A stretch of DNA of 64,000 nucleotides, from the NCBI GenBank assembly GCA_964035575.1, contig OZ037837.1, forward strand, positions 1,550,001 through 1,614,000. Direction: 5' to 3'. Under the pieces are notes generated by a model. That model was given only the letters and a program-made list of their open reading frames with translations, was not told the DNA's origin and made no database searches. This document shows, in pieces, positions 354 through 61,759 of this stretch. This stretch comes from Rhynchopus sp. YZ270_cl-10 (Eukaryota). The position numbers and the translations under genes were made by a program. How positions within the stretch are numbered: position 1 is the stretch's first letter; each line of letters starts with the position of its first letter.

Positions 354-3300
354 ATGGGATCCGGAGCGTCGAAGCCTGAAAAGGACGAGATTGCAAAGGG
401 AATTACTGGGAAGGAGAGGCCCGTGGACGCAGTGGACAGCGCGGACGGGAGGACAATGCTGCACAGTGCCGTGCTTGCGGGGGACGTGGAGGCAGTGCGG
501 TTTCTTGTGGAGAACGGGGCAGGGAATGTGCGTGACAGGGACGGGAAGGTGCCGCTGTGGTACGCACTGCAGCACAGAGACGCGGATGTGCGGGGCCGAC
601 TTGAGGCGGAGCTGGGGGCGCATGCAGCAGAGATCCTTGGTGAGGTGGAAGATGCTGTGCAGGTGTACCTCACTGACGGTGTTGTGACAACAACAATAGC
701 AGATGTGGACGTGGAACGGAGCAGTGGAGATGCAACGACAGCACCTCTTGCTCACCCTCACATGGACATGGCGAAAGACACGAACACCTCGACTGGAGAC
801 AGACACCTGGGAGAGGACGATCTTGACGGGGACACGGGTGCACTGTGGCACACAGACGGACGGAAGGTGGAGTGGCTGCGGAAAACAGACGACAGCAACA
901 ACAAGAACAAGAACAGCAATGGAGGTGAAGACCTGCTGTGCTGGCTGCGTGGTCTGCCAAAGGTGGATCCGCCGTTGGGCTACACAGACGAACACGTGCG
1001 GCACATGGAGGCGGGGTTCCGTGTGGTGTGCAAGCGTCTGCTGGAGGACATGAGAGGACGGAGGGAGGCTGCGGGGACACATGGTGGACACGTGGAGGTG
1101 GAGGACTGGATGGCGGCACGCGACCCGTTTGAGCTGCTGCTGTCGGGGTTCCTGTTCACGTCTGACTGCGTGGAGTATGTGCTGGACAGCGGCGGGGATG
1201 TTGTGTGCGACGAAAAGGGCACACCGCAGATTGCGAAAGGGCTTGACGGGAAGCTGCGGTACATCAAACTGACGGAGCGGGCTGTGCTGGACAACCACGG
1301 GAGTGCTGCTGATGTGAAATCACAGTCGCTTGCGCTGTACATGACGATGAACACTGCGATGCGTGCTGTGGGGCAGCTGGCTGCGGTGAAGGAGTGGAAG
1401 GGGACACCTGAGAAGACAGCACCGAACGTGTTTGAGCTGTCGCCCGCACCCCCGCAGCTGCATGTGATTGCGACCTTTGCGCCGCTGATCCGTGGTCTGG
1501 ACCGGCTGATTGGGAGCCGACGGAAGCAGCTGCGGACTGTGTTCCGCGGGATCAATGTGAACGTGTCTGCGAAGTACGCGCTGAATACACACATTGTGTG
1601 GAACTGCTTCACGTCGACAACACTGAAGCGGGATGTGGCTCGGAGCTTCATGTACGGGAAGGGTGGCACGTTCTTTGTGGTGGTGGCGAAGGAGGGTGCT
1701 GCAGACGTGAAGTTCTCGTCTGTGTATGCTTCGGAGGACGAGCTGCTGTACACAGCGAACATTGAGTACCGTGTGCAGTGGAAGCTTTCGCCGACGCTGC
1801 TGCGGATGATGGGGCTGCGCTTTGACGTGATTGTGATGCAGGAGGTGTGTTCTGGTGTGGGTAAGGGTGTGGGGGACACGAGTGCGGCTGAGCAGGTGGG
1901 TGCGCTGCAGGAGGTGATGGGACACACAGTCGCGTTCTTCAAGGACTACCTTGCGCAGTACGTGGAGGGGCGTGTGGGGGACGACACACGTGTGGGTGAG
2001 TCGGAGACACGTCCGCTGATGGAGGAGGTGCGGAGGTGGCTTCGTGCACGTGGAGGTGGAGGTGGAGGTGGGAAGCAGATGTCTTCCGTGTGCACACAGG
2101 CAGCAGCGGGCACACACACAGAGCGCAAGCCTGATGTGGATGCGAGAGAAGAAAGACAAGGGACGTGTGGTGTGCTGTGTGTGATCGGAGAAGGAGGGAG
2201 CGGGAAGACGTCTGCTTCGATTGCAATTCTGAGCGACCTTGCAACGTCTGCGAGGAAGAGCGAAAGCACCAGCAACGAAGACTCAAACAGGAACAGAAAC
2301 AGAAGCAGATACAGTGTTGTGAGTGATGTGACTGCGGATGCGGATGGAGATGCGAAGCCGTACTTCCCTGTGTTTGTGGCGCTACCGACTGTGAAGCAGC
2401 ACCTGCTTGACAAGGGAGGGTTGGACAGGTTTGTGCTGGAGTCGTTTGCGCTGCGGGAGGCGGACCGTGCGTTCCTTGCGGAGACATACGAGGTGGTGCT
2501 GGTGCTGGACTCGCTGGACGAGGTGGGGCTGACGCAGAAGGATGTACGTGCTGTGGTGGCTGAGGGTGGCCTTCTGTGCCGGCACCCGTGGGTGGAGGCA
2601 CACTGCAGCGTTGTTGTGACTGTGCGTGGTGAGTACCTGAAGGGTGTGGACACGTCTCCGTCTGGTGTGTGTGGGGCTGGTGTGCGTGCTCTGTACATGC
2701 AGCCGTTCACAGAGGTGGATGCGAGAACGTACATCAAGCGTGCAAACACAGCCTGGGAGAAGGAACACAAAGAGGGGAAGTCAGCCCACAAGGAGGAGCG
2801 CACAGTCTTCGTGCGTGAGGAGGACGTTGAGGGACTTGTGCAGCTGCGGAACCCGTTTGTGCTGCACATGGCGTGTCACGCGCAGTGCAGCGGGAAGGCT
2901 TCTGAGGAGGTGATCTACGAGACCTACCTGAAGACGTGGACGAAGAAGGAGATGGCGTCTGGGGGAGTTGCTGTTTCTGTTGCTGTTTCGGATGTGTCTT
3001 TGGAGGATGTGGTGCGTGCAGGGGAGCTTGTTGCATGCAGGATGCTGGAGACAAACGAGTGGCAGGGGACTGTGGGTGTGGCGTCGGAGGTTCTTGATTC
3101 GCAGCACGGTGTGTGTGAGGCTGTGCGGGGTGCGTGCTTCCGCTGCCTGCCGTTCCGGATTGAGGACTTTGGGGAGGAGCGGAGTGCGTTCACGTTCCGG
3201 CACAAGTCGCTTGGGGAGCACCTTGCAGCACGGCGGCTTGCACGTGATGCAGCAGGGACACTGGGGACGCTGGTGCAGCGGAGCTTCAGCAAGGACTCGC

Positions 3301-60883: not shown

Positions 60884-61759
60884 ATGGGGTGTGACACGCA
60901 GCCCACTGCACCACAGATGCTCAGCTGTGAGAACTGTGACGAGCCTGCACAGCTGCAGTGTGGCATCTGCACGGAGCTGTTCTTCTGCGACAAGACTGCG
61001 TGCTACGATGCTTGCCACCCAAGGCCACGTGACCAGGAGGCACATCGCGCTTCTGTGACTCCTTGCGGGACGTCGTCGAAGTGTGCACAGCACCCAGGAC
61101 AAGAGCTGTGCGTCGTCTGTGAAGACCCTGCGTGTGGAGACGCGTTGATCTGCATGCGCTGTGCTTACTTCGGACATACGGGACACAAGACAGTTGACAT
61201 CACGGACTACATGAAACGCCAGCGTGACACCCTCTGCTCACACGTGGAAGACCTGACAGCACAACGGACTGCTGCAGAGGAGAAGTGCCGTGTGCTTGAG
61301 GCACTCCCACGCACGGAGGACAGGTAAAGACCTTCTCCTGCAGACACACATCGGGCACCTCGTGATGCGTGAGGATGTGTCGCGCAGCGAAGTCGTGTGT
61401 GAGGAGGAGGTGGCACGGAGCTTCCTCACACAGGCACTCAGTCGTGAAGGGGAGGTGTGTGCGCTGAAGACGTTTGTTGCGAAGGTAGGACACATGATTG
61501 CTGAGTGTGAGACGGTGTGCCAGCTTGGGGACGACCAGGTGCTGCGTGCGGTCACAGAGTCGCAGGCCGTTGTGCGGAGCATCAACAGCATGGCAGCGAG
61601 TGGAGACCGCCACCGCCTTGTGGGTTCTGCAGACCCACACGCAACGTTTTCCCTGAAGCTGCCTGTTGCTGTTTTGAACGTGCACGACGCCCTTGCCCAG
61701 ATGTTTGCGCTTGTTGTGCCTGTCTTTGTGCAGGGTTTGGATGGAGTGGAACACGAGAT
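60884..61759 (+). pseudogene. B-box/coiled-coil - Ubl - LRR copy 5, frameshifted and truncated within the Ubl domain
   Basis: Carries the same 2-bp deletion (TAA 61325-61327) and the same 6-bp insertion (LPVAVLNV) as copy 4. Homology stops abruptly after GVEHE. Confidence 0.85.

Follow-up and report, generated by a model that had tools for sequence, protein, structure and literature searches.

What kind of receptor is encoded by the gene at positions 354..5579 of a 64,000-nucleotide stretch of the Rhynchopus sp. YZ270_cl-10 genome (GenBank assembly GCA_964035575.1, contig OZ037837.1, positions 1,550,001 to 1,614,000 of the forward strand; hereafter the window), and does it act together with the leucine-rich repeat (LRR) genes beside it? 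The initial annotation, made from the sequence alone, placed this gene, which joins an ADP-ribosyltransferase (ART), a NACHT NTPase and WD40 repeats, in an immune island with two LRR families built on ubiquitin-like (Ubl) domains. The gene at 354..5579 probably encodes an intracellular immune receptor of the NLR type, one of a large and diversifying family whose members would be ligand-gated, membrane-tethered and equipped with a predicted ART effector. This receptor family is more notable than the island. For animals, plants, fungi and bacteria, NLR immunity has been described in detail, but much less is known about how free-living unicellular eukaryotes detect intracellular bacteria and viruses; if the reading is true, such an organism would have an NLR immunity whose executioner is a toxin-type ART. 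A sensor-switch-enzyme layout and the diversification fingerprint of fungal NLRs are found here in one of the most abundant marine protist groups.

The stretch was read with the standard code, and the open reading frames on the plus strand are long and without introns. The protein from 354..5579 is ordered as myristoylation motif, ankyrin repeats (Ank), helical domain, ART, NACHT with helical and winged-helix subdomains, pentapeptide repeats and 14 WD40 blades, which would form two propellers. Its features are as follows.

354..5579, plus strand: ART-NACHT-WD40 gene, a single intact open reading frame of 1741 aa
354..371, plus strand: MGSGAS, a predicted N-myristoylation motif and likely the true start, present in 63/65 close paralogs
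390..587, plus strand: about two ankyrin repeats (Pfam Ank_2 34.4 bits, Ank_4 37.7 bits)
1464..1853, plus strand: ART catalytic core with the R in VFRG, the S in FTSTT and E-D-E (PF01129, Foldseek, motif counts)
2172..2741, plus strand: NACHT NTPase with Walker A GEGGSGKT and Walker B VLVLDSLDE (PF05729 17.1 bits, Foldseek)
3492..3647, plus strand: pentapeptide repeats (PF00805 26.1 bits), a beta-solenoid in the predicted structure
3648..5438, plus strand: 14 WD40 blades with four hypervariable positions each

The ART domain matched PF01129 with 28.9 bits (cut-off 22.3, E 9e-7). Residues 195-1100 of the protein were modeled with AlphaFold2 (pLDDT 80.6). When this model was used in Foldseek, NLRC4, NLRP3 and NOD2 ranked first (E down to 5e-9), followed by the R-S-E ARTs Vis, HopU1 and ExoS (E about 2e-6). 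The parts of an NLR-type STAND protein are present: an NTPase with Walker A and B and helical/winged-helix subdomains, a C-terminal repeat sensor of 14 WD40 blades, and an N-terminal effector, the ART, directly upstream of NACHT. The parts of an R-S-E mono-ADP-ribosyltransferase, namely the ART fold with R, S-x-S/T and (E/Q)xE, are present as well. A phmmer search of the ART core against PDB sequences gave no significant match. Fold and R-S-ExE motif are shared with the cholera-toxin-like R-S-E mono-ARTs (Vis, HopU1, ExoS), with which vertebrate ART1/2 also belong; unlike these, the ART here is embedded in a cytosolic STAND protein and is not secreted. R-S-ExE ARTs transfer to arginine, and the motif therefore points to arginine transfer. 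By inspection, no signal peptides or transmembrane segments were found in the ART-NACHT family or in the two LRR families (B-box and CaaX, described below), and the proteins of all three are predicted to be cytosolic.

Is this a single gene or a family? The ART-NACHT region as query returned 77 proteins, of which 65 had at least 61% identity and lay on 22 contigs as told apart by length; the gene at 354..5579 has at least 64 close paralogs. Motifs were counted in these 65, with the 12 distant matches excluded. The catalytic R and S were each present in 65/65, as were Walker A and B. ExE was found by regular expression in 63/65; one miss retains EDE, and the other is a rearranged model. The MGSGAS-type motif was found too in one Hemistasia and one Euglena homolog. 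The Foldseek ranking of NLRs and ARTs and the motifs kept across the 65 paralogs support the NLR-like protein with an ART effector that the initial annotation had described. Its ART, NACHT and WD40 assignments were correct, while MGSGAS, the ankyrin and pentapeptide repeats and the BspA/TpLRR type of the neighboring LRRs had been missed.

For the alignment, 56 of the 65 paralogs were used, after exclusion of 6 truncated or fused sequences and the 3 most divergent ones. Median pairwise identity was 96.7% in the ART/NACHT core and 83% in the linkers; in the WD40 region it was 27.8% at the four top positions per blade versus 79% elsewhere. The first 1098 residues, linkers included, contained zero columns with an entropy of at least 2 bits, and the 84 such columns inside the listed domains were all in the WD40 region. 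The entropy peaks were at offsets -7, -5, +11 and +13 from the a-b turn of each blade. A constant enzyme with a variable sensor is what the ligand-gated receptor model predicts. One blade was also checked on DNA contigs from sequencing runs, which span intergenic DNA too and may be the assembly's own source. Three of the hypervariable codons held 11/16 listed nucleotide variants, and 4 of the other 5 were at third codon positions. Region-wise distances among the paralogs are correlated (0.43-0.79), which gives no sign of wholesale sensor swapping. The depth of one core contig was 5701 versus 98-109 for exact-match pieces; depth itself is not copy number, and this is a weak hint of about 50 copies in one genome. 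A further ART-NACHT-WD40 protein, P0068, carries an unchecked precomputed Pfam label, ribosome-inactivating-protein.

Where is a comparable pattern known? The papers cited here by identifier were accessible in part, and all statements about them refer to the accessible text. In the NWD genes of Podospora, positive selection acts on codons 7, 9, 25 and 27, which map to the top of the propeller (PMC1805685). These codons and the WD40 offsets -7/-5/+11/+13 have the spacing 2-16-2 in common. At the protein level, the four top-face positions of each WD40 repeat diversify as they do in the HET-E type. The fungal NWD/HNWD NLRs (HET-E, HET-D; PMC1805685, PMC4986451) further share the combination of NACHT and WD40, the multigene family, the pseudogenes and, in each blade, four variable residues that are spaced alike (PMC1805685). 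Their effectors are HET, PNP, HeLo or a prion motif, whereas 354..5579 carries Ank and an R-S-E ART; "ADP-ribosyl" and "myristoyl" have 0 occurrences in the accessible text of PMC4986451. The fungal HET-E type has near-identical shuffled repeats under concerted evolution, whereas the 14 blades here differ from each other and keep their order across the paralogs. The pentapeptide linker, the myristoylation motif and the unicellular host are also additions relative to the fungal proteins.

This likeness raises the question of whether ART-NACHT-WD40 proteins serve kin or self/non-self recognition among protists, like Podospora HET-E/HET-D, with the ART as death effector. The NACHT-WD40 layout and the four variable positions are as in the Podospora allorecognition family, but dozens of different paralogs in a single genome look more like a broad repertoire than like a handful of allelic loci, and we know of no cell-fusion incompatibility in diplonemids. 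Such a role is considered improbable.

An enzyme directly before NACHT and a repeat sensor after it are also found in bacterial NACHT/Avs and in TeTIR/TEP1 NADase-NACHT-WD40 proteins (10.64898/2026.09.21.753143, PMC13581612, 10.1101/2022.07.19.500537). The predicted NAD+ use is a further likeness to TeTIR; the difference is that the ART-NACHT family has an ART fold, not TIR or sirtuin. Compared with these enzyme-effector STAND proteins, it is a large eukaryotic expansion. "ADP-ribosyl" has 0 occurrences in the accessible main text of PMC13581612 and 10.1101/2022.07.19.500537, and none of the papers searched showed an R-S-E ART as the effector of an NLR. The nearest Atlas look-alikes are bacterial NACHT-pentapeptide clusters at 0.82-0.86, which are leads only, and every Atlas match was below 0.9.

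How far does the module extend? A search of 1.84 billion representative proteins gave 227 ART-NACHT matches; the range counts come from the best 150 of these 227, and the query itself selects for ART plus NACHT. Among the matches listed, ART stood directly before NACHT in 87/104 proteins of at least 700 aa, and R-S-E was intact in 84/91 ART domains. Sixteen of the 30 homologs looked up were named, every one euglenozoan. The homologs are from Lacrimia lanifica, Hpha, Diplonema papillatum, Flectonema, Artemidia, Papus, Apiculatamorpha and Euglena gracilis, where Hpha was read as Hemistasia phaeocysticola from the identical prefix in the accessible supplement of PMC10161547. The module occurs in other diplonemids, in free-living prokinetoplastids and in Euglena. 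The closest named homologs are those of diplonemids (about 40% identity), which points to a diplonemid as the source of the window as well. Most named homologs carry transcript-assembly ids, which indicates that they are transcribed in those species. The presence of homologs in the tractable Diplonema papillatum (KAJ9461234.1) and Euglena gracilis makes the question directly testable.

No description of ART-NACHT-WD40 proteins or of euglenozoan NLRs was found in the full text searched, outside which most subscription papers lie. Comparative ART reviews, which are also outside this literature, may mention ART-NACHT-type fusions. ART-NACHT and NLR terms are absent from the accessible main text of the Diplonema genome paper (PMC10161547), and in its supplement, as far as accessible, a "NACHT domain-containing" orthogroup appears, with 26 members from Hpha, in a row that carries no comment.

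Could the ART family instead be a selfish, self-amplifying toxin element that expanded without host benefit? The expansion is recent and large, with a core that is 97% identical, and an ART-linked genomic parasite of free-living eukaryotes has been published (PMC12957317). No mobility gene was found nearby in a Pfam scan of 132 intergenic open reading frames, variation limited to the propeller top is not predicted by such an element, and the ART-NACHT module is old and kept across Euglenozoa. We regard this explanation as very improbable.

For the receptor reading, we infer ligand gating, enzyme activity, a target and an immune role as follows. The predicted myristoyl anchor would tether each ART-NACHT receptor to a membrane. 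Binding of a ligand, likely a foreign one, to the hypervariable WD40 face would make the NACHT domain switch and oligomerize, after which the predicted arginine-type ART would act on a common host target or use up NAD+. The infected cell would be arrested or killed as the outcome. Diplonemids host Holosporaceae and Rickettsiaceae, and a giant virus of a kinetoplastid is known (PMC8061765). These intracellular alphaproteobacteria and the giant virus of a relative represent a plausible selective pressure. A wider proposal is more tentative, and its chance is put a little below even: Euglenozoa would have an NLR immunity of their own, in which an old ART-NACHT module, expanded here to 60+ membrane-anchored receptors that each have their own diversified WD40 sensor, answers intracellular bacteria or giant viruses by ADP-ribosylation and cell suicide, and hundreds of variable Ubl-LRR binders addressed to different compartments form a second sensor layer.

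What, then, are the LRR genes? By tblastn and open reading frames, the gene counts of the initial annotation were reproduced: 1 ART-NACHT-WD40 locus, 5 B-box loci (3 intact) and 8 CaaX loci (5 intact). The LRR loci are as follows.

7414..9249, plus strand: B-box1/B-box2-coiled coil-Ubl-BspA LRR gene, intact, 611 aa, with a basic N-terminal stretch resembling a nuclear localization signal
15523..17205, plus strand: B-box/coiled coil-Ubl-LRR gene, intact, 560 aa
18377..20065, plus strand: B-box/coiled coil-Ubl-LRR gene, intact, 562 aa
24057..25139, plus strand: Ubl-BspA LRR-CaaX gene, intact, 360 aa, C-terminus CVCT
27877..28878, plus strand: Ubl-LRR-CaaX gene, intact, 333 aa
29463..31240, plus strand: Ubl-LRR-CaaX copy split by a 614-bp insertion at 29924-30537 that is flanked by an 18-bp direct repeat
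31948..32874, plus strand: Ubl-LRR-CaaX copy with an in-frame stop at 32383-32385
33593..34744, plus strand: Ubl-LRR-CaaX gene, intact, 383 aa
35519..36670, plus strand: Ubl-LRR-CaaX gene, intact, 383 aa
39635..40486, plus strand: Ubl-LRR-CaaX gene, intact, 283 aa
41206..41550, plus strand: Ubl-LRR-CaaX 3' fragment with the last three repeats and CaaX
55841..57455, plus strand: B-box/coiled coil-Ubl-LRR pseudogene with a 2-nt deletion near 56283
60884..61759, plus strand: B-box/coiled coil pseudogene with the same 2-nt deletion near 61325, truncated within Ubl

The pseudogenes noted initially are real. Two B-box copies share the 2-nt deletion, which indicates that the damage is older than their duplication, and the CaaX copies show the stop, the insertion and the fragment. 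Reading 29924-30537 as an intron was considered and dropped, since the 18-bp direct repeat flanks it. The insertion makes the reading frame end in GTKT; P0149 and P0151, paralogs on another contig, have GTKT ends too, at other repeats. These ends hint at an element that may target one fixed position within the LRR unit.

Both families consist of Ubl, a helical cap and 25-residue BspA/TpLRR repeats, and they are about 45-50% identical over the first 135 residues. PF13306 was above its cut-off in every intact LRR copy scanned, and TpLRR 6mlx was the best fold match. The intact CaaX genes have 5 to 9 LRRs. All 8 C-termini of the CaaX loci in the window are CVCT, and prenylation is predicted from this ending. 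The CaaX query returned 637 homologs; a CaaX-like end, mostly CVCM, was present in 81/120 of those listed, and a basic tail in 14/120. The B-box query returned 76 homologs. The B-boxes scored 19-21 bits for zf-B_box, just under the cut-off, with a Cys/His pattern in addition, and long helices were modeled at 138-275. No Pfam match to RING was found in the B-box proteins, the first 40 residues of which are disordered in the model. The B-box/coiled coil relative P0228 has extra Ubl domains, and P0242 is B-box/coiled coil-Ubl-Ubl with a beta-propeller replacing the LRRs. Exchange of this propeller with the ART-NACHT family was considered; it is only 25-38% similar to the WD40s of the NLR, and no module exchange is shown.

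TRIM/RBCC proteins have B-box1, B-box2, a long coiled coil, a variable C-terminal binding domain and clustered expansion. The B-box/coiled coil family resembles them in B-boxes followed by a coiled coil, a variable C-terminal domain and clustered expansion; it differs in that RING is missing and Ubl plus BspA LRRs replace PRY-SPRY. Membrane-anchored ubiquitin-fold (MUB) proteins have a lone non-conjugatable Ubl and a C-terminal CaaX. The CaaX family shares both features, with the difference that 5-9 variable LRRs lie in between. BspA/TpLRR families of Entamoeba and Trichomonas (PMC5349171, PMC2843621) are similar in LRR_5 repeats and large families, and in Entamoeba also in predicted prenylation; the families here differ by a constant N-terminal Ubl, B-box/coiled coil versions, a free-living host and a measured ratio of nonsynonymous to synonymous substitution rates (dN/dS) above 1.

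Repeat positions 17, 18, 21 and 22 are the four most variable in both families. The positions were picked from paralogs outside the window, and dN/dS was then measured on window DNA. At these positions the CaaX family had a dN/dS of 2.20 (bootstrap 1.39-3.94), or 2.12 for the five intact copies alone, versus 0.56 at the other LRR positions and 0.21 in Ubl, all as pairwise values that ignore relatedness and gene conversion. Between the B-box gene at 7414-9249 and its paralogs, dS was 0.02 in the coiled coil versus at least 0.38 in the LRRs, which suggests repeat exchange or a homogenized N-terminal part. The diversifying sensor repertoire proposed initially is thus supported by the HET-E-like WD40 hypervariability and by a dN/dS that exceeds 1 at four LRR positions of the CaaX family. 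With one Ubl-LRR module as their common base, the two Ubl-BspA-LRR families likely form a repertoire of their own, made up of variable binding proteins. Their address tags differ: CaaX would direct to membranes, and a basic N-terminus with B-box/coiled coil, or a basic C-tail, possibly to the nucleus.

The pairwise nature of the CaaX ratios weighs against the immune receptor reading, as do the following points. The Pfam score for NACHT/nSTAND is weak, with PF05729 (17.1 bits) under its cut-off. The WD40 diversification was measured on protein, without codon-level dN/dS. The four-position WD40 codes were distinct in 55/56 copies, with a median nearest-neighbor identity of 42%, but the clustering of the protein database at 90% conceals copies that are nearly identical, so that the proportion of distinct codes comes out too high. 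At the variable LRR positions of the B-box family, dN/dS was 0.87 with a very wide interval. The LxxLxL strand forms the usual concave binding face of LRRs; the variable LRR positions are off this strand, and its positions 2, 3, 5 and 7 have a proportion of nonsynonymous differences (pN) of 0.02-0.05. The Ubl residue at ubiquitin Ile44 is Ser in 62/73 and Arg in 7/73 copies, and diGly is absent from the Ubl. Without Ile44 and diGly, a role as proteasome adaptor is doubtful; with RING missing from the B-box proteins as well, neither LRR family is a canonical adaptor or TRIM. Finally, a BspA protein of Entamoeba is reported in chemotaxis, for which it is needed, rather than in defense (PMC5349171).

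The Entamoeba case also favors another explanation, in which the proteins are non-immune receptors for prey, food or habitat cues and the ART is a reversible signaling modifier. In eukaryotes, toxin-type ARTs have been put to new use as modifying enzymes (PMC3417536), and a gene with a solute-binding domain lies in the same window. The predicted cytosolic location of all three families speaks against it, and both the extreme variability at specific sites and the fast loss of genes are in line with an arms race. This explanation is judged unlikely. With these points weighed, the locus likely represents an NLR-type sensor repertoire with a predicted ART effector in Euglenozoa, beside which two LRR families diversify separately.

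Do the three families form one functional immune island, with the LRR proteins serving an ART-NACHT executioner as co-receptors, baits or regulators and selection keeping the families together? Co-location was counted for 65 ART-NACHT matches, 73/76 B-box matches and the first 74 of the 120 CaaX-type matches listed among 637. This is a contig-level proxy in which contigs are told apart by length, and contigs of equal length or a second assembly may share one label. All three families occur together on four contigs, 63/73 B-box matches share a contig with an ART-NACHT gene, and NLR and CaaX proteins both have predicted lipid anchors. The largest arrays are located elsewhere: 27/65 ART-NACHT matches are on one contig with 0/73 B-box and 0/74 CaaX-type matches, and 35/74 CaaX-type matches are on one contig without the other two families. 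The initial annotation had called for a comparison with a null. With a size-weighted null, the outcome depends on the assumed assembly size: P = 0.26 at 60 Mb, 0.01 at 100 Mb and <0.001 at 150 Mb or more. The contigs are about 1 Mb, and co-occurrence on a contig is therefore not adjacency. Five unrelated genes are also interleaved with the three families. We consider the functional island rather unlikely. The initially claimed island is not established, though some co-location is possible. Shared residence in fast-evolving regions accounts for such co-location as well as a shared pathway does, and needs no functional link. The three families likely share the locus as residents of the same duplication-prone regions, where each of them expands and decays, rather than as members of one pathway.

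The five interleaved long open reading frames are as follows.

11000-11851, plus strand: membrane protein, no Pfam match
13446-14006, plus strand: HIT zinc finger
21095-22162, plus strand: GH130-like glycosidase
43089-44198, plus strand: acyl-CoA thioesterase
45241-48582, plus strand: extracellular solute-binding domain gene (PF01547), 1113 aa, with hydrophobic segments and a C-terminal part without a Pfam match

By eye, we take the C-terminal part of 45241-48582 to resemble a degenerate nucleotide cyclase, and the product is likely a receptor-type cyclase. In Diplonema, genes lie in unidirectional clusters of 5-120 genes (PMC10161547). The co-orientation of the three families, which had been noted as a feature of the island, is true but uninformative, since the five unrelated genes are also on the plus strand and unidirectional clusters are the rule in Diplonema.

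The transposon clutter described initially was found in part. Short dispersed repeats, a duplication, the insertion and a hairpin are present. Transposase and reverse-transcriptase families were matched by 0/132 intergenic open reading frames at the curated Pfam cut-off, with one sub-threshold IS66 Orf2. A near-exact 318-bp tandem repeat is at 9779-10482, a 589-bp duplication (99.7%) at 36928-37516 and 38614-39202, and a perfect (ACACTTT)29 array at 57536-57740; these are either very recent duplications or assembly artifacts. Short Cys/His-rich frames at 59010-59808 (plus strand) and 60206-60688 (minus strand), which have no transposase Pfam match, presumably resemble zinc fingers of DNA transposons, as judged by eye. 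A near-perfect hairpin at 63454-64000, with 262-nt arms that are 98% complementary and a 23-nt loop, reaches the window end and is possibly a fold-back element.

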